DNA of 64,000 bases from an uncultured Clostridia bacterium (GTDB taxonomy: Bacteria; Bacillota; Clostridia; Christensenellales; CAG-138), in the NCBI GenBank assembly GCA_905235205.1, contig CAJOKM010000004.1:1879-65878 (forward strand), read 5' to 3'. Below are positions 7,249 to 46,782 of this stretch, one piece after another. The notes beneath the pieces were generated by a model. It did not search any database. It was not told the origin of the DNA and saw nothing but the letters and a program-made list of their open reading frames with translations. The position numbers were made by a program, and so were the translations under genes. The first letter of the stretch is position 1; the number at the start of each line of letters is the position of its first letter.

Positions 7249-7281
7249 CAACCGTTCGATGAAATGTCGGACGGTTGTTTT
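7249..7281 (+). terminator. putative rho-independent terminator after the U32 gene
   Basis: Stem CAACCGT...ACGGTTG followed by TTTT. Confidence 0.4.
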
Positions 7282-7309
7282 CATATGCGGGAAAAACCAT
7301 ACATACAGT
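7281..7309 (+). promoter_or_regulatory. sigma-E-like sporulation promoter upstream of spoIIIAA
   Basis: TCATATG (7281-7287), 14-nt spacer, CATACAGT (7302-7309). This matches the B. subtilis mother-cell sigma-E consensus (TCATATT-N14-CATACAnT), about 20 nt before ATG 7329. Confidence 0.5.
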
Positions 7310-7328
7310 GAGAGCAGGAGGGACGAGC

Positions 7329-8249
7329 ATGGAACCGTGGAAAGCACAGTGGACGGCATTGCTGCCCAAACCCATATCGGAGGTGCTGCATCGCATTGAC
7401 GAAACAGAACCGCTTTTAGAGATCCGTCTGCGGCGCGACGCGCCGATGGAGCTTGTGTTCGAGGACGCGGATCGGATCGTATACGGCAACAACGGCGCGC
7501 CGATGACGACGGCGGAGGATCTTCGGCAGATCTGCGCGCGCCTGACGGAGTTTTCGGCGTTTGCCTGGGAGAATGAGAAGCGGAGCGGATTTGTCACGGT
7601 CGGCGGATGCCGTGTCGGACTGTCCGGACGCATGATCCGCTCGGAAAAGGGTGTTTTAGGGTTTTCATCGGTCTCGGGACTGTGCATTCGTATCGTGCGG
7701 GAGAAAATCGACTGCGCAAAGGATTTGTCGAGCGCGCTGATGCGCGACGGGCGGCTGCTTTCCTCGATCCTGGTCTCACCGCCGGGATGCGGCAAAACGA
7801 CGCTTTTGCGCGATCTGATCCGGATTGCGTCCGACGGATTGTACGGGGTACGCGCAAGCCGCGTCGGCGTCGCGGATGAACGGTTCGAGCTCTCGGGCGG
7901 GTCCGACGGTTCCGTGCCGTTCGATCTGGGCGTACGGACCGACGTCGTTTCGGGGATTGCAAAGGCGGACGCGATGGTGCGGATTCTGTCCACGCTCTCG
8001 CCCGAGATCCTTGCGATGGACGAATTGAACGACCGGCGCGACTGCGACGCGCTGCTGGACGCGCACGGCAGAGGCGTGACGGTGCTTGCGACCGCGCACG
8101 GCAGCGACAGAGAAGACCTCATACGCCGACCGATGCTCCGGATGCTGTTCCGCGAACGCGTGTTCGAGCGGATCGCGGTTTTGCACGGCATCGGAAAACT
8201 GAAAGCCGTGTATGACGAAACCGCCGCGCGAACGGAAGTGCGCAGGTGA
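7329..8249 (+). CDS. spoIIIAA: stage III sporulation protein AA (ATPase)
   Basis: Start MEPWKAQW with AGGAGG upstream. Walker A SPPGCGKTTLLRDL and Walker B ILAMDEL; first gene of the 8-gene spoIIIA order. Confidence 0.9.
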   Translation: MEPWKAQWTALLPKPISEVLHRIDETEPLLEIRLRRDAPMELVFEDADRIVYGNNGAPMTTAEDLRQICARLTEFSAFAWENEKRSGFVTVGGCRVGLSGRMIRSEKGVLGFSSVSGLCIRIVREKIDCAKDLSSALMRDGRLLSSILVSPPGCGKTTLLRDLIRIASDGLYGVRASRVGVADERFELSGGSDGSVPFDLGVRTDVVSGIAKADAMVRILSTLSPEILAMDELNDRRDCDALLDAHGRGVTVLATAHGSDREDLIRRPMLRMLFRERVFERIAVLHGIGKLKAVYDETAARTEVRR

Positions 8250-8725
8250 AGGCGGTCGGGATCGCGCTGCTGTTCGGACTCTGTACGCTGTTCGGATTCC
8301 GGACCGCAGAAAAAAAGACGGTGCGGCTGAAAACCGTACGCGCGATGCTGCTGGAGCTGCAGGCGTTTTCCGATGCGATCATGACGGGCGGCGAAACGCT
8401 TCAACGGCTGTCAGAGCGATCCGGCGTTTTTTATTCGCTTCTTTCGGCGTATCTAAAGGAACTCGAACAAGGGAAGACGGAGACCGAGGCGGCGGAACTT
8501 GCCCTGGAAACCCTCAACGGAACCGGAGACGTGCAGGCGGCGCTCAAGCAGTTTCTGACGGGACTTTCCGGCGCGTCCGGCGCCGCGCTGCGAGGACGGA
8601 TTCACTCGCTGATGCCGGTTTTGCAGGCAGCGGAAACGGCGGCGGAAGCGGAAGCCGGGCAGGGGCGTGTGTTTCGGTGCATCGGCGTGCTGATCGGAGC
8701 GGGGCTGGCGATTCTATTGATGTAG
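8246..8725 (+). CDS. spoIIIAB: stage III sporulation protein AB
   Basis: GTG start overlapping the AA stop (GTGA); N- and C-terminal TM helices; position in the operon. Confidence 0.8.
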   Translation: MKAVGIALLFGLCTLFGFRTAEKKTVRLKTVRAMLLELQAFSDAIMTGGETLQRLSERSGVFYSLLSAYLKELEQGKTETEAAELALETLNGTGDVQAALKQFLTGLSGASGAALRGRIHSLMPVLQAAETAAEAEAGQGRVFRCIGVLIGAGLAILLM

Positions 8726-8734
8726 GGAGCGTTT

Positions 8735-8932
8735 ATGGATATCAATTTGCTGTTCAAGATCGCAGGGATCGGGATTCTCGTCGCGGTGATCGTACAACTG
8801 CTTCGGCAGAACGGACGCGAAGAACTCGCGACGGTTGCGGCGGTTGCCGGACTCGTCCTTGCGACCATGCTCGTGCTGTCCATGATTGTGTCGCTGCTGG
8901 AAACCGTGCGGCGCACGTTCGCCCTGTACTGA
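8735..8932 (+). CDS. spoIIIAC: stage III sporulation protein AC
   Basis: 65-aa two-TM protein MDINLLFKIAGIGILVAVIVQLLRQNGREE, typical of SpoIIIAC. Confidence 0.85.
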   Translation: MDINLLFKIAGIGILVAVIVQLLRQNGREELATVAAVAGLVLATMLVLSMIVSLLETVRRTFALY

Positions 8933-8933
8933 T

Positions 8934-9326
8934 ATGGAACGGCTTCTGCTGATTGCACTGGTCGGATCGGTCACCGCCGTCCTGCTGCGGGCGGTTCGAA
9001 CGGAGTACGCCGTTATCGTCGGGATCGTGACCGCGGTGCTTCTGCTCGTGTTCGGGATCGGATCGTTTACGGGGATCGCAAGCGTGTTCGAGCGTGCCTG
9101 CACGGAGTTTGGCGTATCGTCGGCGCTGCCTGCGTCCGCATTGAAGATTCTCGGACTCGCGTACCTGACCGATCTCGGCGTAAACATCTCGAAGGACGCC
9201 GGACAGCAGGCGATCGCCGGAAACCTTGAACTGGGCGGGCGGATCCTGATCGTATCGTGCGCGCTTCCGTCAATCGTATCGCTGTTGGAAACGGGCGCCG
9301 GGCTGATTCGGGAGACGCTCACATGA
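8934..9326 (+). CDS. spoIIIAD: stage III sporulation protein AD
   Basis: Start MERLLLIALVG inside ORF 8886..9326. Polytopic membrane protein with LKILGLAYLTDLGVNISKDAGQ. Confidence 0.85.
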   Translation: MERLLLIALVGSVTAVLLRAVRTEYAVIVGIVTAVLLLVFGIGSFTGIASVFERACTEFGVSSALPASALKILGLAYLTDLGVNISKDAGQQAIAGNLELGGRILIVSCALPSIVSLLETGAGLIRETLT

Positions 9327-10441
9327 ACCGCGCGGTCTTCTTGCTTACAGTGCTGCTGCTTCCGCTGTGCTTTGCGTCTGTGCCGGAGAAGGCGGGCGAC
9401 GCAGCCGAAGCGCTGGTCGCTTCGGTCGATCTGTCGGAATGGGACGATTGGTTTACACAAAACACGGAAGGAATTGCGTTCAAGCCTTCGGACTTTCTCC
9501 GAAGGACCGTAAACGCGGAACAGGCGAACGATCCGGACGCGTGGAAAAAGGCCGCGCTCGAAGTGGTTTTCCCGTCGCTGAAAACGGCGATACAATACGG
9601 CATGCTGTTTCTGGGGCTTGCGGTGCTTGCGTCGGTCCTGCGGGGGCTGGACACGTCGTCCGCGACGGCGGAAACCGCCGAAATCGCGTTTCGCGCAATC
9701 GCATCAACGGCAGTGCTGCTTGTCGTGTTTACGGAGATTCGGTCCGCGAGTCTTGTATTGAAGCGCGTGACGAATACGTCGGAGGTGCTGCTTCCGATCC
9801 TGCTCGGGTATTTGACGCTCGGCGGTATGGAGCATTCGGCGGCGGCGATCGCACCGCTGTTTTCCCTGCTGTCCGACCTTGTGCTGAACGTCTTTTCCCG
9901 GATCGTCGTTCCGCTTGCCGCGATCGGAGGCGTTCTCTTGGCGCTTGACGTCAGCGGGAACGGAAACCTGCATCCGATCGGGCGAATCCTGATCCGCGGC
10001 GCGAAATGGATCCTTGCGACGGTGTGTTCCGTATTTCTGCTGTTCTCGGTCTTTCGCGGCGCGACGGCGGGAAGCGCGGACGGATTCCTGCTGAAAACGG
10101 CAAAGCTTGCTTTAGGCGGGATCCCGGCGGTCGGCGGGGTCGTCACGGAATCGGTGGAGACGGCGTATCAGTGCCTGATGCTGGTCAAAAACGCGCTCGG
10201 CTTCAGCGCGGCGGCATTGCTTGTGCTGATCGCGGTAAAGCCCGTTCTGTCTGCGGCGCTGATGCGGTTTGCGCTGCGCGGCGCGTCGGCTCTGTGCGAA
10301 CCGATTTCCGGCAGACCGTATGCCGAGCTGCTGCGCGGACTCTCGGATACCATGCAGGTGATCGTTTTGGCGGAGCTTGCGTCGCTTGCTATGGCGCTGT
10401 TTGCGCTTTCGCCGGTGTTCGGCGTGGGGCGGTTTTCATGA
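9323..10441 (+). CDS. spoIIIAE: stage III sporulation protein AE
   Basis: Start MNRAVFLLTVLLL (signal peptide), ATGA overlap with AD; large polytopic membrane protein at the AE position. Confidence 0.85.
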   Translation: MNRAVFLLTVLLLPLCFASVPEKAGDAAEALVASVDLSEWDDWFTQNTEGIAFKPSDFLRRTVNAEQANDPDAWKKAALEVVFPSLKTAIQYGMLFLGLAVLASVLRGLDTSSATAETAEIAFRAIASTAVLLVVFTEIRSASLVLKRVTNTSEVLLPILLGYLTLGGMEHSAAAIAPLFSLLSDLVLNVFSRIVVPLAAIGGVLLALDVSGNGNLHPIGRILIRGAKWILATVCSVFLLFSVFRGATAGSADGFLLKTAKLALGGIPAVGGVVTESVETAYQCLMLVKNALGFSAAALLVLIAVKPVLSAALMRFALRGASALCEPISGRPYAELLRGLSDTMQVIVLAELASLAMALFALSPVFGVGRFS

Positions 10442-10605
10442 ACGCCGCGGCAAGGGCGGTGCTTGCGATCGCCGCGGGCGGCGTGTGCGTGACCGTACTG
10501 GAAACGCTGCTGCCGCGATCCGGAGTGAGAACGGCGGCGAAGGTTGCGATGGGACTGCTGTATCTCCAACTGCTCACGGAACAAATCCTGAGCATAATTC
10601 GGTAG
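10438..10605 (+). CDS. spoIIIAF: SpoIIIAF-like mini-protein (N-terminal membrane segment only)
   Basis: 55 aa, MNAAARAVLAIAAGGVCVTVLETLLPRSGVRTAAKVAMGLLYLQLL. ATGA overlap with AE, and spoIIIAG starts 11 nt after its stop. Only the two-helix N-terminal part of SpoIIIAF is present. Confidence 0.6.
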   Translation: MNAAARAVLAIAAGGVCVTVLETLLPRSGVRTAAKVAMGLLYLQLLTEQILSIIR

Positions 10606-10615
10606 CGGAGGGACT

Positions 10616-11209
10616 ATGATGCAGAAGAAGGACGGAACGAACGTACTGGAACGGATCAAAGCGCGCGTCAAAAAGAACCCCGGGCTCGCTTACGCCGGGT
10701 ATGTCACGATCGGAGTGATCGCCGTCCTTTTTTATCTGCTCGGCAGCCGCTTGGACTGTTCGGGCGCAAAACAGGAATCGACACCGGCAATCGAGACCGG
10801 CGTGCGCGCCGCAGAACGCGACACGCTGGAACGAAGACTGATCGAAGTCCTTTCCAAGATCCGCGGCGCGGGCAGGGTGGATGTGCTTGTCACGTATGAG
10901 ACGAACGGAGAGATCGTCACGGCAACCGTACGGCAGACCGATGAGGACGTAAAGGATGCGAACGGGACGGGCGGAAGCGAGACCTCGCGTACGGTGCGCG
11001 AGGTCACCGAGCCCGCGACGGTCGAGACACAGAACGGGCATACGCCGATCGTGCTGTATGAAAGGGAACCGCTTGTGCGCGGCGTGATCGTGGTGGCGGA
11101 AGGCGCGTCTGACTTTTCGGTGCGGGAGAAGCTGCAGGCGGCGGTGCATGCGGCGACCGGGATTCCGGTTGCGCGGATCGAAGTGTTTGAGATGACTTAC
11201 GGCGGATAA
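10616..11209 (+). CDS. spoIIIAG: stage III sporulation protein AG
   Basis: N-terminal TM, LERRLIEVLSKIRGAGRVDVLVTYE, and C-terminal VRGVIVVAEGASDFSVREKLQAAVHAATGIPVARIEVFEM. Confidence 0.85.
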   Translation: MMQKKDGTNVLERIKARVKKNPGLAYAGYVTIGVIAVLFYLLGSRLDCSGAKQESTPAIETGVRAAERDTLERRLIEVLSKIRGAGRVDVLVTYETNGEIVTATVRQTDEDVKDANGTGGSETSRTVREVTEPATVETQNGHTPIVLYEREPLVRGVIVVAEGASDFSVREKLQAAVHAATGIPVARIEVFEMTYGG

Positions 11210-11235
11210 AAAACAATTCAATGGAGGATCAAGCA

Positions 11236-11769
11236 ATGAAAGAAACGATGAACCGGTACAGGAAATTTCTGAACAAACGCGTTCTGACGGCGGTGGGTCT
11301 GTGCCTGCTGCTGGTTGCGGCGGTACTCACAAACGTGCTGATCAACCGCGGCAGGACGGAGGAGACCGAGGCGCAAGCGTCGAACGACGCGGTACAGGTG
11401 TCTTCGGTCGGGCGCACGTCCGATCCGAACTTCTTTGCGGCGTACCGCGAGGAGCGCGACGGCGTGCGCACGCAGGAGCTTGCGTATCTCGACGCGATCG
11501 TGGCGCAGGGCGCGGATGCGGAAACGCTTGCCGACGCGCAGAAGCAAAAGCTTTCGCTGGTGAACGCCATGGAGACCGAACTGACCGTGGAAAACCTGGT
11601 CCGTTCGAAAGGCTTTGCGGACGTGATCGTATCCATGCACGAGGGAAGCGTGAACGTTGTGGTCGGCGCGGATACGCTTTCGGACGAACAGGTCGCGCAG
11701 ATCCTGGATATCGTCCTCAGGGAGACGGGCGAAAGCGCCGAAAACGTCAAAATCAGCACGACGCTGTAG
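11236..11769 (+). CDS. spoIIIAH: stage III sporulation protein AH
   Basis: ORF 11221..11769; ATG 11236 is preferred (GGAGGA 7 nt upstream). N-terminal TM, FFAAYREERD, and a C-terminal ring-building-like domain. Confidence 0.8.
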   Translation: MKETMNRYRKFLNKRVLTAVGLCLLLVAAVLTNVLINRGRTEETEAQASNDAVQVSSVGRTSDPNFFAAYREERDGVRTQELAYLDAIVAQGADAETLADAQKQKLSLVNAMETELTVENLVRSKGFADVIVSMHEGSVNVVVGADTLSDEQVAQILDIVLRETGESAENVKISTTL

Positions 11770-11869: not shown

Positions 11870-12283
11870 ATGAGCGAGTATAAAGATATCACCGTCGAAT
11901 CCGAAGGAAACGGCGGGAAAGTCGTTTTTGCGGAAGACGTCGTTGCGACCATTGCAACGCTTGCCGCCGCGGAGGTGGACGGCGTGTACGGAATGAGCGG
12001 CACCGCGTTTGAAGGACTCGGTGAAAAGCTCGGCAAAAAGAACTACACCAAGGGCATCAAGGTGGAAGTCGGACAGGTCGAGTGCGCGGTCGATATGAAC
12101 ATTATCGTTCGCTACGGGTTCAAGATTCAGGACGTCTGCCGCGCTGTGCAGGAAGCAGTCAAAAACGCGATTGAGACCATGACGGGCCTGAAGGTCGTGC
12201 AGGTCAATATCGCGGTCACGTCGATCGCGTTTGCGAAGGAAGTGCCCGCCGAACCGCCGAAGCCGGAGAATCGGGTCAAATAA
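11870..12283 (+). CDS. Asp23/Gls24 family envelope stress response protein
   Basis: VVFAEDVVATIATLAAAEVDGVYGM and IIVRYGFKIQDVCRAVQEAVKNAIETMTGL. Confidence 0.9.
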   Translation: MSEYKDITVESEGNGGKVVFAEDVVATIATLAAAEVDGVYGMSGTAFEGLGEKLGKKNYTKGIKVEVGQVECAVDMNIIVRYGFKIQDVCRAVQEAVKNAIETMTGLKVVQVNIAVTSIAFAKEVPAEPPKPENRVK

Positions 12284-12923: not shown

Positions 12924-13136
12924 ATGAAGGAGTTTATCGAAGCGCATAAGTGGGCGATCGTATTGAGCATTGTGGCGATCATTATCGTACTGCTGTTCTA
13001 TTTGATCGGCTGGTGGACGCTGCTTGCGGCGCTGCTGGTCGGCATTGCGATCTTTTTCGGAAAGCTTCTGGACAACGGCGGAACGGAATCGGTCAAAGCC
13101 TTCTTCCGGAAACTGTTTAAGGGAAAAAACGCATGA
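12924..13136 (+). CDS. DUF2273 family small membrane protein
   Basis: 70-aa two-TM protein, third member of the asp23-amaP-DUF2273 cluster. Confidence 0.7.
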   Translation: MKEFIEAHKWAIVLSIVAIIIVLLFYLIGWWTLLAALLVGIAIFFGKLLDNGGTESVKAFFRKLFKGKNA

Positions 13137-13531
13137 GTCACACGTTATCCAGAGAAATCGCCATGAAACGGCTGTATGCCGAAACGGTCGGCGGAGAGGA
13201 CACGCTGGAGGAAGCGCTGGCGCAGACCGAGTGCGGCGATCTCTCCGACGAGGATGTATTCTTCTCGGACCGCCTGTATGAGGGCGTGCACGCGCATTGC
13301 GATGCAATCGACGCGGAGATCGGGGCGCACGCAAAGGACTGGTCGATCGGGCGGATCGCCAAGGTGGATCTTTCCATCCTGCGCGTCGCGGTGTATGAAC
13401 TTCTGTACGAAAAGAACATTCCGGTCGGCGCAACGGTCAACGAAGCGGTCGAGCTTGCGAAGGCGTTCGGCGGGGATAAGTCGGCAGGGTTTATCAACGG
13501 CGTTTTGGCTGCCGTAGCAAAGGCGCATTGA
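13133..13531 (+). CDS. nusB: transcription antitermination factor NusB
   Basis: REIAMKRLY..., RIAKVDLSILRVAVYELLY and GFINGVLAAVAK. Confidence 0.9.
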   Translation: MSHTLSREIAMKRLYAETVGGEDTLEEALAQTECGDLSDEDVFFSDRLYEGVHAHCDAIDAEIGAHAKDWSIGRIAKVDLSILRVAVYELLYEKNIPVGATVNEAVELAKAFGGDKSAGFINGVLAAVAKAH

Positions 13532-22381: not shown

Positions 22382-22430
22382 TATGCTTTTTGAACGGATG
22401 CGCACGATAGTAAAAAGGAGTGTGCATACT

Positions 22431-23636
22431 ATGAAACGGTTTTTTCGCGCGATCACGGCGCTGTTTTCCGCAATTCTTCTGGGCTGGTACTGTATTCCCG
22501 AGGTATATCGGACGCTGCATCTTCCCGACCGGGTCGACGCGTCGTTTTCGGTTTCCGCACCCGCGATGCGGACGGAACGGACCGATGTGTACGCCGTATC
22601 GGGATCGCGTGACGAGCGATTGCGCGATGTATCCGGGCAGGCGTATTCGATTCGCCTGTTCGGCGTTCTGCCTCTGCGCACCGTGTATGCCGCGGCGCGG
22701 CAGAGGACGGTATGCGTCGGCGGGGAAGCGTTCGGCGTGATTCTCAGGACGAACGGCGTGCAGATCGTCGGGATCGGGTACGTCGACGCCGAGGAGGGCA
22801 GGATCAGTCCGGCGCAGAAAGCGGGCCTAAAAGAGGGCGACGTGATCTGCGCGGTCGACGGGATGACGGTGACCGACACGCAGTCGTTTATCGGACTGTG
22901 CGAAAAAGCGGGCGAGATCTGTACGCTGTCCTGCCTGCGTGAAGACACGCCGTTTACGGTTACGCTTCGGCCTGCGGCGGACAGCGACGGCGTAAAGCGC
23001 ATCGGCGCATGGGTGCGCGACAGCACGTCGGGGATCGGGACCCTGTCGTTTTATGACGCGTCCAGCCGCCGGTTCACCGCGCTCGGGCACGGTGTGACCG
23101 ATGTGGATACGGGAAAGCTGATCGCGCCGGCAAGTTTTTTGAGTGAAGTACGGCTGACCGGGATCCGAACGGGCGACGCAAACAATGCGGGCGAGCTTTT
23201 GGGGCAGTTTTCCGATCGGGAAGCGGACGCGATCGGCTCGGTCGAGCAGAACACCGTGTTCGGAATCGCGGGGACGCTGAGCGGGTTCACAGACACGAAT
23301 GAGACGGCGATCGGGATCGCGCCTGCCGGCGCGGCGCATTTGGGGGATGCGTTCATCCGCTCGACGATCGACGCCGGCGGCGTGCGTGAATACCGGGTTC
23401 GCGTGATCCGCGTCGATGTGCAGTCGTCGCCCGAGACGCAGGGGATGATGATTGAAATTACGGACGACGCATTGCTCGAAAAAACGAACGGCATCGTACA
23501 GGGCATGAGCGGCAGTCCGCTGATCCAGGACGGGAAACTGATCGGCGTCGTGACGCATGTGTTCGTCAGCCGGCCGACGCGCGGATACTGTCTGTACGCG
23601 GACTGGATGGCGCAAAAACTGCTGCCTTCGACATAA
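22431..23636 (+). CDS. spoIVB: SpoIVB peptidase (S55)
   Basis: Start MKRFFRAIT (AAGGAG upstream) inside ORF 22383..23636. PDZ segment GLKEGDVICAVDG, LGHGVTD, and catalytic GMSGSPLIQDGKLIGVVTHV. Confidence 0.9.
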   Translation: MKRFFRAITALFSAILLGWYCIPEVYRTLHLPDRVDASFSVSAPAMRTERTDVYAVSGSRDERLRDVSGQAYSIRLFGVLPLRTVYAAARQRTVCVGGEAFGVILRTNGVQIVGIGYVDAEEGRISPAQKAGLKEGDVICAVDGMTVTDTQSFIGLCEKAGEICTLSCLREDTPFTVTLRPAADSDGVKRIGAWVRDSTSGIGTLSFYDASSRRFTALGHGVTDVDTGKLIAPASFLSEVRLTGIRTGDANNAGELLGQFSDREADAIGSVEQNTVFGIAGTLSGFTDTNETAIGIAPAGAAHLGDAFIRSTIDAGGVREYRVRVIRVDVQSSPETQGMMIEITDDALLEKTNGIVQGMSGSPLIQDGKLIGVVTHVFVSRPTRGYCLYADWMAQKLLPST

Positions 23637-23676
23637 TTTATTCACGGTATTCCCGCGTTTCGTCATTTCTTCACGG

Positions 23677-23705
23677 TTGAATTGCGTCAGGAATTGGCAG
23701 AAAAT
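23677..23705 (+). promoter_or_regulatory. possible sigma-A-like promoter upstream of spo0A
   Basis: TTGAAT (23677-23682), 17-nt spacer, GAAAAT (23700-23705). No convincing sigma-H motif seen. Confidence 0.3.
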
Positions 23706-23730
23706 GGCAGTACGGAGAGGGGGAAACCGT

Positions 23731-24450
23731 ATGCGTATTCTGATGCAAACGACCGACGAAGCGACGGAACGGTCGTATTTATCCGCGGCGGACGAGCTAA
23801 ACGGACTGGATCTTTGCGTGCTGCACGACGAAGCGCAAGCCCTGGAGCGCGCGTTTCGTGAGCCGTTCGACGCACTGATCGTCGATGAAGAAAGCGAGGC
23901 AAGCGACACGCCCGGCACTGACCGCGTCTTTTATCCGGACAATCGGATTCTGCTGTTCGATACAGCGCCCCACGCAATCCCGAGCGAGATCACCTACGCC
24001 TTTTACCGCTCGACGCCGCCGAAAACGGTGCTCGGGCGGATCGGTACGTTTCCGGCGGGAGGCGTACACAGAACCGGAACGGACGCCGCGATCTCACGCT
24101 TTTTACAGCGGGTGGGGGTTCCGGTGCATCTGAACGGATTCTATCTTCTGAAGGATTCGATCCGGCTGATTCTGACCTGCAAACGCCCGACGGACTTGCG
24201 CATCACGCGCGATCTGTATGCGGCGCTGTCCGAAACGCTGCGGATTCCTTCGTCCGGCATCGAGCATGCGATCCGCCATGCGATCGGCGCGGCGTGGCTT
24301 CGGGCGGATGTGGAGCTGCTCGAATCGGTTTTCGGGTACACGGTCAGTTCGGAACGCGCCATGCCGTCCAACGCGGCGTTTCTGTTTACGGCGGCGGAGC
24401 GGATTCGCCTGGAGAGCGGGGAGGAGCAGCGATGGAATACCATGAATTGA
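23731..24450 (+). CDS. spo0A: sporulation transcription factor Spo0A with atypical, shortened receiver domain
   Basis: Start MRILMQTTDE (GGAGAGGGGG upstream) inside ORF 23557..24450. The C-terminal domain matches the Spo0A DNA-binding domain: GVPVHLNGFYLLKDSI..., IEHAIRHAIGAAW, VFGYTVSSERAMPSNAAFLF. Canonical position after spoIVB. Confidence 0.8.
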   Translation: MRILMQTTDEATERSYLSAADELNGLDLCVLHDEAQALERAFREPFDALIVDEESEASDTPGTDRVFYPDNRILLFDTAPHAIPSEITYAFYRSTPPKTVLGRIGTFPAGGVHRTGTDAAISRFLQRVGVPVHLNGFYLLKDSIRLILTCKRPTDLRITRDLYAALSETLRIPSSGIEHAIRHAIGAAWLRADVELLESVFGYTVSSERAMPSNAAFLFTAAERIRLESGEEQRWNTMN

Positions 24451-24908
24451 TCGCACTGTCGGATCGGTTTCACAGCCGGTACCGGGATCCGGACGCGCTT
24501 TTGGACGCGGTGATCAACGCGACGCTTTGCGCGCTGTGCGTTCCGGCAAACCTTTTAGGCTACCGGTATCTGTTCCTTGCGGTTCGCTATATCCGCAAAA
24601 CGCCGCAGGAAAAGCGACTCAACATGCTGCGCGACATCTATCCGCACGTAGCGGAGATGACCGGAACGAATCCGCCCATGGCGGAGCGCGCGATGCGTTA
24701 TGCGATCTCGTGTGCATGGAAACGCGCCGATCCCGAGGTGCTGTATTCATATCTCGGACTGCGCGGACGTGATCTCAAGAACGCGCCGACCAACGTAGAG
24801 TTTCTGTATCTTGTCGCGGAGCGCGTGCGTCTGATCACCGGCGATCCGGAGGACGAAGCGCGGTTTCAAAGACTGATGGAAGAAGCGCACAAGCGTTTCG
24901 GATCGTAA
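24432..24908 (+). CDS. stand-alone Spo0A C-terminal (DNA-binding) domain protein, no receiver domain
   Basis: Start MEYHELIAL (GGGGAGGAG 5 nt upstream) inside ORF 24294..24908. VPANLLGYRYLFLAVRYI, AERAMRYAISCAWKRADPEVLYSYLG and APTNVEFLYLVAERVRL parallel the Spo0A_C blocks. Overlaps spo0A by 19 nt. Confidence 0.75.
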   Translation: MEYHELIALSDRFHSRYRDPDALLDAVINATLCALCVPANLLGYRYLFLAVRYIRKTPQEKRLNMLRDIYPHVAEMTGTNPPMAERAMRYAISCAWKRADPEVLYSYLGLRGRDLKNAPTNVEFLYLVAERVRLITGDPEDEARFQRLMEEAHKRFGS

Positions 24909-27183: not shown

Positions 27184-27274
27184 TGGCGCAGAGAGAGGGA
27201 TTCGAACCCTCGATACGGTTCCCCGTATACACGATTTCCAGTCGTGCGCCTTAGACCAGCTCAGCCATCTCTGC
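27184..27274 (-). tRNA. tRNA-Ser (anticodon GGA)
   Basis: Manual fold: acceptor GCAGAGA/TCTCTGC, anticodon stem CACGA/TCGTG, loop CTGGAAA, long variable arm, T-arm GAGGG-TTCGAAT-CCCTC, encoded CCA. Confidence 0.9.
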
Positions 27275-27431: not shown

Positions 27432-27506
27432 GGGGCATTAGCACAGTTGGTAGCGCGCAACGTTCGCAATGTTGAGGTCAGGAGTTCGAATCTCCTATGC
27501 TCCACC
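27432..27506 (+). tRNA. tRNA-Ala (anticodon CGC)
   Basis: Acceptor GGGGCAT/ATGCTCC with the G3:U70 alanine identity pair, anticodon loop TTCGCAA, T-loop GGTTCGAATCC-like AGGAGTTCGAATCTCCT, encoded CCA. Confidence 0.9.
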
Positions 27507-27546
27507 ACGTCGTCGTAAGTCTCACTTGACTTGCGACGATTTTTTT
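27507..27546 (+). terminator. rho-independent terminator after tRNA-Ala
   Basis: CGTCGTCGTAAGTC-TCACTT-GACTTGCGACGA followed by a T7 run; starts immediately after CCA. Confidence 0.75.
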
Positions 27547-44206: not shown

Positions 44207-45619
44207 ATGGAAACGGGAACGTTTGAAGAATCGATGCGCATCACGATCGATTACAACAACATGATGCAGGAAACGCTCGGCGCACGCGGGCTCACCAAAG
44301 CGGAGCTTACGGCGCTTCCGTTACGGGAAGCCGTCAAGGGCATGAAAGAGAAGCGCGGACAGATGAAATGGCGCGAGCTTCCGCACAACCAGGACGCGAT
44401 CGTGGGCGAAATCGAAGCGGTTGCGAAGGACGTGCGCGCGCGGTTTGAGAACTTCGTGGTGCTCGGCATCGGCGGAAGCGCATTGGGTCCGATCGCGGTA
44501 CAGCAGGCGCTGTCACATCTTCGCTACAACGATCTTCCGCGCGAAAAACGGAACGGACCGCGGCTGTTTGTCGAGGACAACGTCGATCCGGAGCGCATGA
44601 ACGCGCTTTTGGACGTGATCGACGTGGAAAAAACCTGTTTCAACGTGATCACCAAATCGGGCAGCACGTCGGAAACGATGTCGCAGCTTCTCATTGTGAC
44701 CGATCTTTTACACAGGGCGCTCGGCGAGGACATCTCCACGCACCTGATCGCGACGACCGACCGCGAGAAAGGGAATCTCATCAAGATCGCAAAGCGCGAG
44801 AACCTTCAAACCTTCTATGTGCCGGACGGCGTGGGCGGACGGTTTTCGGAGCTGTGCCCGGTGGGACTTTTAGCGGCGGCGGTGTGCGGGATCGACATCC
44901 GCATGCTTTTACGGGGCGCGGCGTACATGGACAGGCTGACCCAAAATGAGAACGTGTTTGAAAACCCGGCGTACCTTCCGGCGGCTTTGCAGGTTGCGGC
45001 GATGAAGCGCGGCGCGAACATCCATGTTCTGATGCCGTATGCGGATTCGCTGAAATACATTGCGGACTGGTATGCGCAGCTGTGGGCGGAATCGCTCGGC
45101 AAGCGCACGGACAACGCCGGAAACGAGATCTATGCCGGACAGACCCCGGTCAAATCGCTCGGCGTGACCGATCAGCATTCGCAGGTGCAGCTCTATACGG
45201 AAGGTCCGTTTGACAAGGTTGTGACGTTTCTGTCCGTCGACCGGTACAGAAGCACGATGCCGATCCCGAACGGATACCTTGATATTCCGGACGTGTCGTT
45301 CCTTTCGGGACACACGCAGAACGAACTGATCGCAGCGGAGGAAGCGGCGACCGAGTATGCGCTCATGAAGAGCGGACACCTGAGCTACGCGATCCGCATG
45401 CCGGAGGTGAACGCGTTCACCGTCGGCGAGCTTTTGTACCTGTTTGAAGTCATGACCGCGTTTGCGGGCGAACTGCTTTTTTTGAACGCGTTCGATCAGC
45501 CGGGCGTCGAGGAAGGCAAGAACGCGACGTACGCGCTGCTCGGCAAGCCCGGGTTTGCCGAAAAGAAAGCGGAGCTTGACGCCGCGCCGAAAAAACGCGC
45601 GGAATACGTCGTCAGATGA
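44207..45619 (+). CDS. pgi: glucose-6-phosphate isomerase
   Basis: VVLGIGGSALGP, ITKSGSTSET, GGRFSELCPVGL and DQHSQVQLYTEGP. Confidence 0.92.
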   Translation: METGTFEESMRITIDYNNMMQETLGARGLTKAELTALPLREAVKGMKEKRGQMKWRELPHNQDAIVGEIEAVAKDVRARFENFVVLGIGGSALGPIAVQQALSHLRYNDLPREKRNGPRLFVEDNVDPERMNALLDVIDVEKTCFNVITKSGSTSETMSQLLIVTDLLHRALGEDISTHLIATTDREKGNLIKIAKRENLQTFYVPDGVGGRFSELCPVGLLAAAVCGIDIRMLLRGAAYMDRLTQNENVFENPAYLPAALQVAAMKRGANIHVLMPYADSLKYIADWYAQLWAESLGKRTDNAGNEIYAGQTPVKSLGVTDQHSQVQLYTEGPFDKVVTFLSVDRYRSTMPIPNGYLDIPDVSFLSGHTQNELIAAEEAATEYALMKSGHLSYAIRMPEVNAFTVGELLYLFEVMTAFAGELLFLNAFDQPGVEEGKNATYALLGKPGFAEKKAELDAAPKKRAEYVVR

Positions 45620-46782
45620 AGAAACGCGCCGTCGGAACCAAAGCACCGTACCGTGTCGATGTCGTTACGATCGTTCTGGTAACGGCTTTGGTTCTGTTCG
45701 GCCTTGTGACGATTCTAAACGTATTGTCCGACCCGTTCGACGGCACGGAGACGACGTTTCAGGCGTTCTATGACCGCCTGAACTTTCAGTTCTTTTCCCG
45801 ACAGGCGGCGAACATTCTGATCTCGCTTGCCGTGCTGATCCCGCTTGCGATCATCGACTATGACAAGTATAAACCGTTTGTCAAAGTCGCGTATGTCGTA
45901 TGCCTGATCCTGCTGTTCCTGCTTGTTGTCGCGGGACAGAACACGCGCGGCGCGCTCGGCTGGTTCTGGATCGGCGCGCGCTCGTTCCAGCCCTCGGAGA
46001 TCACCAAGGTTGTGCTGATCATCGCGCTGTCCAAGGCCGCGTCGGAAGCGTACGACCGGCGCGGACCGATCACGGCGTTCCGTGATTTTTCAAAGCTGTT
46101 TCTGATCTTCTTCGTACCGTTTCTGCTCGTCATTTTACAGCGCGATTTCGGCACCGCCATGGTCATTCTGATCATCTTCGGCGGGATTCTGTTTGCCGTG
46201 CGCATTCGCTGGCGGTATGTGTTCGGCGGACTGTTTGCGCTCGGCGTAGGCGGGATCCTAAGCTGGATGCTCGTTCTGACCGAAACGCAGAAGGAGCGCA
46301 TCCGCGTCTTTATCGATCCGACGCGCGATCTCGAGGGCGAGGGCTTGAACGTGCTGCACGCCAAGCAGGTCATCGGCTCCGGCGGATTCTGGGGGAAGGG
46401 CTATTTTTCGAAGGGCACGCTTGTGCAGACCGGATATGTCCCCGAGTGGCATACCGACTTTATCTTTTCCGGCATCGGCGAGGGCGTCGGCTTTTTCGGC
46501 GCGATGCTGCTGATCATCGTATTCTTTGCTCTGCTGTTCCACTGGCTGCATACGGCGCTGGTTGCGCGGGATACGTTCGGTCGCTGCCTTTGCGTCGGGT
46601 GCACCGTCATGATCGCCGCGCACGTCTTTGAAAACGTCGCCATGAACCTCGGCGCGATGCCGGTCACCGGTATTCCGCTGCCGTTTATCAGCTACGGAGG
46701 GTCGAATATTCTCGCGTCGTTTGCCTGCGTCGGCATCGCCATGAGCGTGTACGCGCGCGCGGCGGGGAGGCGGCAGTTATGA
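45616..46782 (+). CDS. FtsW/RodA/SpoVE family peptidoglycan glycosyltransferase
   Basis: SFQPSEITKV, DFGTAMV, HTDFIFSGIGEGVGFFG and GIPLPFISYGGSN. ATGA overlap with pgi. Confidence 0.9.
   Translation: MKKRAVGTKAPYRVDVVTIVLVTALVLFGLVTILNVLSDPFDGTETTFQAFYDRLNFQFFSRQAANILISLAVLIPLAIIDYDKYKPFVKVAYVVCLILLFLLVVAGQNTRGALGWFWIGARSFQPSEITKVVLIIALSKAASEAYDRRGPITAFRDFSKLFLIFFVPFLLVILQRDFGTAMVILIIFGGILFAVRIRWRYVFGGLFALGVGGILSWMLVLTETQKERIRVFIDPTRDLEGEGLNVLHAKQVIGSGGFWGKGYFSKGTLVQTGYVPEWHTDFIFSGIGEGVGFFGAMLLIIVFFALLFHWLHTALVARDTFGRCLCVGCTVMIAAHVFENVAMNLGAMPVTGIPLPFISYGGSNILASFACVGIAMSVYARAAGRRQL

Follow-up and report, generated by a model that had tools for sequence, protein, structure and literature searches.

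The sporulation master regulator Spo0A is activated by phosphorylation of a receiver Asp, which leads to dimerisation and relief of the inhibition of its DNA-binding domain (PMC11210211, PMC3485338), and according to reviews every endospore former enters sporulation through phosphorylation of this conserved residue (PMC11210211, PMC6136694). How such a regulator could operate with a receiver that has lost most of its phospho-switch machinery is the question raised by gene 1, the gene after spoIVB in a 64 kb stretch of DNA from an uncultured Clostridia bacterium (contig CAJOKM010000004.1; this whole stretch is called the window). Gene 1 is a spo0A orthologue with a pseudo-receiver, which occurs in a small, uncultured clade of Clostridia from gut and rumen, and it is under purifying selection beside an intact spoIVB despite these losses. 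On balance, we favor a Spo0A that no longer uses conventional Asp phosphorylation, that would form a built-in pair of DNA-binding domains with the product of the overlapping gene 2, and that would be controlled through its expression and possibly through partners of the pseudo-receiver.

A spo0A orthologue at the canonical locus

The translated open reading frame (ORF) of gene 1 begins MRILMQTTDE, preceded at a distance of 8 nt by a strong ribosome-binding site (RBS; GGAGAGGGGG, 23714–23723). A longer ORF starting from an ATG at 23557, and with it a hidden N-terminal extension, was ruled out: given the RBS and the start Met common to all gene 1 homologues, this ORF is not used and translation begins at 23731. 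When the protein was compared to Pfam, the sole domain detected was Spo0A_C (PF08769; 75.8 bits, cutoff 25), and no match to Response_reg (PF00072) was found even at E ≤ 10. The NCBIfam equivalog model for Spo0A (TIGR02875, spore_0_A) scored 84.7 bits, below its cutoff of 200, with a match that covers the C-domain only (model positions 148–259). Sequence searches of the PDB gave the Spo0A C-domains 1LQ1 (E = 1.5e-20) and 1FC3 at E values of about 1e-20, and for the N terminus a single weak receiver match (3GRC, E = 0.12).

The gene order of the window is tsaD-xseA-xseB-ispA-dxs-tlyA-nadK-argR-recN-spoIVB-gene1-gene2-deoB-PNP, in which spoIVB is identified by 225.8 bits to PF05580 and 303.9 bits to TIGR02860. 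The order argR-recN-spoIVB-gene 1 is common to the window, all loci of the gene 1 family, the sister clade described below, and the Paenibacillus and Sporosarcina controls, in which spo0A occupies the slot. This conserved synteny makes gene 1 the positional spo0A orthologue, and with the graded series of receivers and the C-domain tree described below we conclude that the decay of its receiver took place within its own lineage. The genuine Spo0A DNA-binding domain that the original prediction, made by eye on the sequence, had placed after spoIVB is thus borne out by domain score and synteny.

The C-domain model superposes on Spo0A C-domains with template modelling (TM) scores of 0.81–0.89 in Foldseek, normalised to the target. 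Of 43 C-domain positions at which 33 canonical Spo0A proteins show no variation, gene 1 retains 26, and the FGYTV and AIRHAI segments are kept. Lineage-specific changes include ERAIRHAI to EHAIRHAI, RG to RA, and KPTNSEF to MPSNAAF; there are also a Lys to Asn substitution in GVPAHIKGY and, in the recognition helix, a change of S-R-V-E-R to S-G-I-E-H; the DNA specificity of gene 1 may therefore have drifted.

A predicted receiver fold with an incomplete active site

Structure models were built on shallow alignments (25–26 sequences). The AlphaFold2 (AF2) models from the family alignment reached a predicted local distance difference test (pLDDT) score of 80.8 for full-length gene 1 and 78.0 for the N terminus alone. 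The predicted order of elements is β1-α1-β2-α2-β3-loop-β4-loop-β5-α5, with loops replacing α3 (residues 53–70) and α4 (residues 77–88); residues 55–65 have pLDDT below 50 and are predicted to be disordered. According to the model, the N-terminal domain is a CheY-like core without α3 and α4. In Foldseek searches of the PDB, the top 50 matches listed for the N-terminal model are all receivers or pseudo-receivers (TM 0.58–0.74, E 2e-4 to 2e-3), the pseudo-receivers of FrzS and CikA among them, and the full-length model gave Spo0A C-domain entries first, then only response-regulator or receiver-domain entries. Profile comparison with hhalign points the same way: the family N-terminal domain aligned end-to-end on the receiver of full-length canonical Spo0A (59.6% probability, E 9e-5), more strongly with the canonical receiver part (83%, E 9e-6), and most closely of those compared with the gene 1 receivers of the sister clade (97%, E 9e-11). 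The N-terminal region had been described as shortened and divergent, at about 105 aa; it comprises 114 aa, fails PF00072, and has a shorter loop after β3.

Residues at the canonical receiver positions were counted in 25 family sequences mapped by profile–profile alignment. The acceptor position corresponds to D52 in gene 1, as proposed originally for the Asp in FDALIVDEESE, and is Asp in 21 of 25 sequences and Glu in four; in the alignment, the L016 locus has Thr. The conserved Thr/Ser position is L75, with Leu in 25/25. The position of the conserved Lys is R93 (Arg in 12, Lys in four, and seven other residues in the remaining nine), followed by S94, and Pro occurs at this following position in 0/25, so that the missing hydrophobic-x-K-P motif noted at YAFYRSTPPK holds for the family. 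Of the β1 acidic pair, said originally to be absent from MRILMQTTDE, the first residue is indeed lost and the second is probably retained as D9 (Asp in 20 of 25), because the family T-x-D aligns with S-A-D of the sister clade and with the canonical D-D. The MPxxDG turn and α3 are replaced, as predicted, although by a variable segment approximately six residues shorter than in canonical receivers rather than by an insert. The five canonical active-site residues are therefore not complete: D52 and probably D9 remain. The outcome that the original prediction had named as contradicting it, a full set of the five residues at their canonical positions along with an ordinary PF00072 score, was looked for and not found. 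With D52 present, gene 1 is not an aspartate-less receiver (PMC4395418), a class for which the four relatives with Glu would qualify. Ten N-terminal positions are invariant in the family (M1, R2, A20, E39, R43, F46, D47, L75, F91, and L101).

In receivers, it is through α3, α4, the Thr, the Lys-Pro pair, and the Mg-binding Asp that phosphorylation of the acceptor Asp becomes a conformational and dimerisation switch. Given the loss of α3, α4, Thr, Lys-Pro, and one Mg-binding Asp, gene 1 is most likely not under the conventional control of a kinase or phosphorelay; this possibility, raised in the original prediction, is the best-supported reading of the locus. The same residues bear on a rival explanation that we consider unlikely, namely that gene 1 still accepts phosphate as a very divergent conventional Spo0A, with D52 phosphorylated by a co-evolved orphan kinase or phosphotransferase, D9 as metal ligand, and lineage-specific residues compensating for the lost Thr, Lys, α3, and α4. 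Retention of D52 and D9 in most family members, invariance of D47 and of the FDALI β3 motif, the plausibly functional receiver of the nearest sister clade, and strong conservation of α1 and α2-β3 residues, which could form a docking face, are all consistent with phosphotransfer. Set against these are the Glu and Thr substitutions at the acceptor, an invariant Leu at the canonical Thr, a variable Lys never followed by Pro, the absence of any PF00072 signal, a β3-α3 turn that is deleted and predicted to be disordered, and the lack of a detected histidine kinase in the 64 kb window.

Purifying selection across the family

Approximately 25 clusters (90% identity) share the whole gene 1 architecture of 233–242 aa, at 42–100% identity, and none of them matches PF00072. 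An exhaustive HMMER profile search of 1.84 billion representatives with the N-terminal domain gave 11 clusters only, all with E < 1e-10 and none between 1e-10 and 1e-3, and every match starts at the protein N terminus; the domain is thus confined to one small clade. Family members derive from rumen and gut metagenome-assembled genomes (MAGs) of the RGIG and RUG series, which carry the label Clostridia or Clostridiales bacterium. Identity was 52% for the best match, so the species of the window itself is absent from the representatives scanned. The relatives had been expected among Oscillospirales; the few that are named carry the labels Christensenella or Christensenellales instead.

Reading frames are intact in all of the approximately 25 clusters and in 12/12 full-length genome loci. 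Origin of the two genes by pseudogene formation or frameshift was ruled out, as identical ORFs of 239 and 158 aa occur in four independent assemblies. Pairwise Nei–Gojobori dN/dS between the window and four close relatives ranged over 0.18–0.43 for the gene 1 N-terminal domain (0.43 in one pair), 0.10–0.21 for its C-domain, about 0.10 for gene 2, 0.16–0.20 for spoIVB, and 0.06–0.07 for deoB. Both domains of gene 1 are under purifying selection, the N-terminal domain being the most relaxed. At loci L005–L016, identity to the window proteins is 83–91% for ArgR, DeoB, and PNP and 75–81% for RecN, as compared to 39–52% for gene 1, 54–62% for SpoIVB, and 45–69% for gene 2. Compared with the window, loci L005–L017 exhibit this as a broader pattern, the sporulation proteins SpoIVB and Spo0A-like evolving several-fold faster than adjacent housekeeping proteins.

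Graded receiver decay in a sister clade

Relatives were gathered in one genome scan with the peptide pattern EHA[IM]RHAI only. A second tier of loci, the sister clade, comprises L018–L029 and L034, from rumen Clostridia/Christensenellales MAGs, one of which is labelled Christensenellales; the L017 locus is labelled Christensenella sp. Those second-tier loci that reach both flanks (L018–L020, L022, L023, and L025–L027) have the arrangement spoIVB-g1-g2-deoB. Gene 1 of the sister clade encodes a recognisable receiver with the acceptor Asp, an LPGIDG turn, and K-P, and the PF00072 score of gene 1 falls from 40–48 bits at L018, L019, and L021 to 26 bits at L028, 23 bits at L029, and 17 bits in P0026, with no match at L017, at L030, or in the window family. 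Derived C-domain states that are absent from canonical Spo0A are common to family and sister clade (ER to EH in the recognition helix, RG to RA, and PTN to PSN). In a neighbour-joining tree of C-domains, a simple tree without support values, family gene 1 groups with second-tier gene 1 and family gene 2 with second-tier gene 2.

Gene 2 of the sister clade (L018–L028; e.g., L020 at about 10700–11499) is a full-length Spo0A-like paralogue. Its N terminus of approximately 120 aa fails PF00072, looks like a decayed receiver with an FVFYKPL motif, and in hhalign matched the window-family N-terminal domain at 92% and canonical receivers at 35%. The 92% match made a recombinant origin of the gene 1 N terminus from sister-clade gene 2 a candidate; this was ruled out by the stronger match to the sister gene 1 receiver and by the C-domain tree, which agrees. 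Probably, spo0A was first duplicated in tandem; the receiver of the copy then decayed, after which that receiver was lost and the gene 1 receiver decayed, with occasional fusion as the last stage.

The scan pattern, a variant of the recognition helix, also occurs at Lachnospiraceae loci (L035–L062; Eisenbergiella and others, including Eisenbergiella tayi DSM 26961 at L061), many of which encode stand-alone Spo0A_C proteins without a receiver. The C-domains of these loci resemble canonical Spo0A (45% mean identity) more than they do the window family.

A second Spo0A DNA-binding domain in gene 2

Gene 2, which follows gene 1 in every family locus, encodes a stand-alone Spo0A_C paralogue. Its product matches PF08769 at residues 28–131 with 78.6 bits and has no other Pfam or NCBIfam match. 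It shares 34% identity with the C-domain of gene 1. Identity to canonical C-domains is approximately 31%, with LGLRG in place of FGYTV and RYAI in place of RHAI, such that its contacts to DNA and RNA polymerase may differ. In at least five relatives (L012, L015, P0007, P0010 [NCBI MBR0507564.1, 393 aa], and P0013), gene 2 is fused in frame to gene 1, giving proteins of 393–397 aa; as the ORFs are separate in most relatives, the fused forms are the minority state. The original prediction described gene 1 but missed this overlapping Spo0A_C gene, its fusion, and the graded decay in the sister lineage.

Apart from genes 1 and 2, neither the 64 kb window nor the 20 kb surrounding each relative yielded a Spo0A_C ORF. 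This result speaks against a further alternative, which we regard as very unlikely, that genes 1 and 2 are accessory Spo0A-like DNA-binding paralogues modulating a canonical spo0A elsewhere in the genome. Precedents for multiple copies exist in some Clostridia, as 10 of 118 Spo0A-positive genomes have two Spo0A proteins and Anaerostipes hadrus has three (bioRxiv 10.1101/2022.02.25.481979); stand-alone Spo0A_C proteins are found in Lachnospiraceae, and the search for other copies covers the window rather than the rest of the genome. Gene 1, however, sits in the argR-recN-spoIVB-spo0A slot exactly as spo0A does in Paenibacillus and Sporosarcina, and its C-domain clusters with the receiver-bearing gene at the same slot in the sister clade.

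A conserved region upstream of gene 1

Alignment of 15 orthologous regions upstream of gene 1 revealed a conserved promoter-like block, with invariant columns inside its elements. The block holds a 0A-box-like heptamer, TTCGTCA (23659–23665), whose family consensus, TTCGACA, is the reverse complement of the 0A box TGTCGAA; a conserved CA(G/C)AAT element follows the heptamer, and a −10-like sequence, CAGAAAAT, is located at 23698–23705. A possible sigma-H-like −10 (GAAT) was noted by eye in the same alignment. Read on the minus strand, positions 23627–23633 match the 0A box TGTCGAA exactly. This site falls within the final codons of spoIVB, 32 bp upstream of the heptamer and in the same orientation; close relatives preserve its sequence, which in them, too, codes for the C terminus of SpoIVB. 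The promoter and terminator scan found no consensus sigma-70 promoter upstream of gene 1 or between genes 1 and 2, with intragenic matches at chance level. The C. difficile spo0A gene has a 0A box at −75, and Spo0A binds its own promoter (PMC3485338). Across the window, TGTCGAA is not enriched (11 found versus 14.3 expected), so only the positional conservation of the 0A-like box upstream of gene 1 is informative, and autoregulation is something that we infer rather than observe.

Sporulation context of the window

Gene 1 lies approximately 12 kb downstream of a spoIIIA operon (Table 1), in which ORFs at the expected spoIIIAF and spoIIIAG positions (10377–10619 and 10616–11209) had no Pfam match at E ≤ 1e-3. 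The catalytic-serine motif of SpoIVB, GMSGSP, is intact in the window and in every related locus reaching the gene. To our knowledge, the spoIIIA operon and spoIVB are sporulation-specific, and together the operon and a constrained, motif-intact spoIVB argue for, without proving, a working sporulation programme, as judged from the genes present. No HisKA, HATPase, Spo0F-like, or Spo0B-like gene was found in the 64 kb window by Pfam searches of candidate ORFs, several of which had no match of any kind.

This context is pertinent to the explanation that gene 1 is a relic: the lineage would be losing, or would have lost, sporulation, and its spo0A would either drift as constraint relaxes or have taken on a role outside sporulation. 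The low identity of gene 1 across species relative to ArgR, DeoB, and PNP, the likewise fast evolution of SpoIVB, and the N-terminal dN/dS value of 0.43 would fit such drift, and the named relatives are Christensenella or Christensenellales, the cultured Christensenella species being described as non-spore-forming (PMC11536998). We nonetheless judge a relic to be quite unlikely, since reading frames are intact throughout the family, dN/dS is 0.10–0.25 in most comparisons, many N-terminal positions are invariant, the upstream promoter block is conserved, six genes of the spoIIIA operon have Pfam matches, and the catalytic serine motif of spoIVB is kept.

Table 1. Features of the window discussed in the text (window coordinates)
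Feature	Position	Strand	Remarks
spoIIIA operon	7275–11769	+	Pfam matches AA, AB, AC, AD, AE, AH
asp23	11870–12283		after spoIIIA operon
nusB	13133–13531		after asp23
spoIVB	22383–23636	+	peptidase S55 + PDZ; probable start ATG 22431; spo0A's canonical upstream neighbour
Upstream region of gene 1	23637–23730	+	promoter-like block from aligned orthologous regions; putative function
Gene 1, positional spo0A orthologue	23731–24450	+	239 aa; degenerate receiver-fold domain + linker + Spo0A_C
Pseudo-receiver (predicted fold)	23731–24072	+	gene 1 residues 1–114; AF2, Foldseek, hhalign, residue counts
Spo0A_C of gene 1	24091–24405	+	residues 121–225; DNA-binding/transcription-activation domain
Gene 2, stand-alone Spo0A_C paralogue	24432–24908	+	158 aa; overlaps gene 1 by 19 nt

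Elsewhere in the window, an FtsW/RodA/SpoVE-family gene (45616–46782, plus strand; PF01098, 266 bits) lies approximately 21 kb downstream of gene 1. Genes for tRNA-Ser(GGA) (27184–27274, minus strand) and tRNA-Ala(CGC) (27432–27507, plus strand) occupy a low-GC dip (∼46%) between the PNP and BioY-family genes, and the ORFs listed at these tRNA genes are spurious translations.

A model for control without conventional phosphorylation

Phosphorylation is not needed for the isolated Spo0A DNA-binding domain to bind its targets (PMC3485338), and many atypical regulators lacking active-site residues are constitutive dimers controlled by their abundance or by partner proteins (bioRxiv 10.1101/2025.06.23.661182). 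Atypical regulators differ most from true receivers in the β3-α3 and β4-α4 loops (bioRxiv 10.1101/2025.06.23.661182), which are the regions remodelled in gene 1. In the mechanism that we favor, the gene 1 protein would work with the product of gene 2, which is translationally coupled to it and supplies another Spo0A DNA-binding domain, and this pair, a single polypeptide in some relatives, would replace the phosphorylation-induced Spo0A dimer. Control would shift to the amount of the pair, for example by autoregulation through the conserved promoter with its 0A-like box, and may further involve partners that bind the conserved surface of the pseudo-receiver. Gene 1 would, on this mechanism, continue to serve in sporulation.

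Several observations weigh against this mechanism. D52 and D9 persist in gene 1 and in most relatives, so that a minimal phospho-acceptor site is possible. The structure models rest on shallow alignments, and the α3 region is simply of low confidence. The overlap and the fusions are the evidence for physical interaction between the gene 1 and gene 2 products, and the evidence on kinases and on a second spo0A comes from the 64 kb window, not from the whole genome. The Arg to His and Arg to Gly changes in the recognition helix may have altered DNA specificity, the window is not enriched in 0A boxes, and evolution of gene 1 several-fold faster than its neighbours (DeoB, for instance) could mean relaxed function. 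Finally, the organisms are uncultured, and their sporulation is predicted from genes.

A more far-reaching possibility, which we put forward only tentatively, is that in an endospore-forming clade of gut and rumen Clostridia sporulation begins without any phosphorylation of Spo0A. The products of genes 1 and 2, fused in some species, would then form a hard-wired heterodimer in place of the kinase or phosphorelay input that is taken to be universal, the decision to sporulate would be taken through transcription or pseudo-receiver partners, and the sister clade, with a phosphorylatable Spo0A and a pseudo-receiver paralogue, would represent an intermediate. If these organisms do sporulate, they constitute a natural experiment in rewiring of the sporulation decision. 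The graded series from canonical Spo0A through a tandem pair, to a pseudo-receiver protein with a C-domain-only partner, and on to the fusion offers a testable evolutionary path. There is also a practical consequence for annotation. In surveys of MAGs, sporulation potential is judged first by the presence of spo0A. The gene 1 family will be missed by strict models such as TIGR02875 and by searches that demand a receiver plus Spo0A_C, and PF00072-based censuses of pseudo-receivers are blind to its N-terminal domain.

Comparison with known systems

The literature covered, which excludes subscription journals, yielded no account of a Spo0A whose receiver is degenerate, of Spo0A_C domains paired in tandem or by fusion, or of a pseudo-receiver with Spo0A_C as its output. 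Gene 1 shares with canonical Spo0A (B. subtilis and C. difficile; TIGR02875; 1LQ1 and 1FC3) the locus after spoIVB, the two-domain order, and the Spo0A_C fold with its helix-turn-helix, FGYTV segment, and a majority of the invariant C-domain positions, and shares with C. difficile spo0A in particular a 0A-like box upstream of the gene (PMC3485338). Unlike canonical Spo0A, its receiver fails PF00072 and lacks α3, α4, the Thr, the Lys-Pro pair, and one acidic residue; its recognition helix reads S-G-I-E-H; it evolves much faster than its neighbours; and it is followed by a second Spo0A_C domain, which is fused to it in some relatives. Gene 2 resembles the isolated C-domain constructs made in the laboratory (PMC3485338) in being a Spo0A DNA-binding domain without a receiver, but differs from the isolated canonical domain in being a divergent paralogue.

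A natural counterpart is the tandem pair of the sister clade, which has the spoIVB-g1-g2-deoB arrangement, the EHA[IM]RHAI, RAD, and PSN states, and an orthologous gene 2 in common with the window. It differs in a gene 1 receiver that is still detectable (PF00072, 23–48 bits) and in a full-length gene 2 with a degenerate receiver-like N terminus.

Among regulators of other families, ChxR, HP1043, GlnR, and RamR are atypical or pseudo-receiver proteins that act without phosphorylation (bioRxiv 10.1101/2025.06.23.661182; PMC4395418). Like gene 1, they combine a receiver fold lacking some active-site residues with a DNA-binding output; like the gene 1 family, they exhibit their main changes at β3-α3 and β4-α4, with Glu at the acceptor in some members; and regulation by abundance or constitutive pairing probably applies to gene 1 as well. 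They differ in having OmpR/PhoB-, NarL-, or other-type outputs and receivers that still score with PF00072, whereas gene 1 is accompanied by a duplicated output domain. With respect to the published definition of a pseudo-receiver (bioRxiv 10.1101/2025.06.23.661182), gene 1 has the CheY-like fold, as predicted, and the residue losses (Thr, Lys, and one acidic residue) but escapes the operational identification by PF00072. The pseudo-receivers of FrzS and CikA (PDB 2GKG, 2I6F, and 5JYU) are among the closest structural matches listed for the predicted N-terminal domain, FrzS with TM 0.70–0.74; unlike gene 1, these belong to different proteins with different outputs, bear no sequence relationship to it, and keep all five helices.

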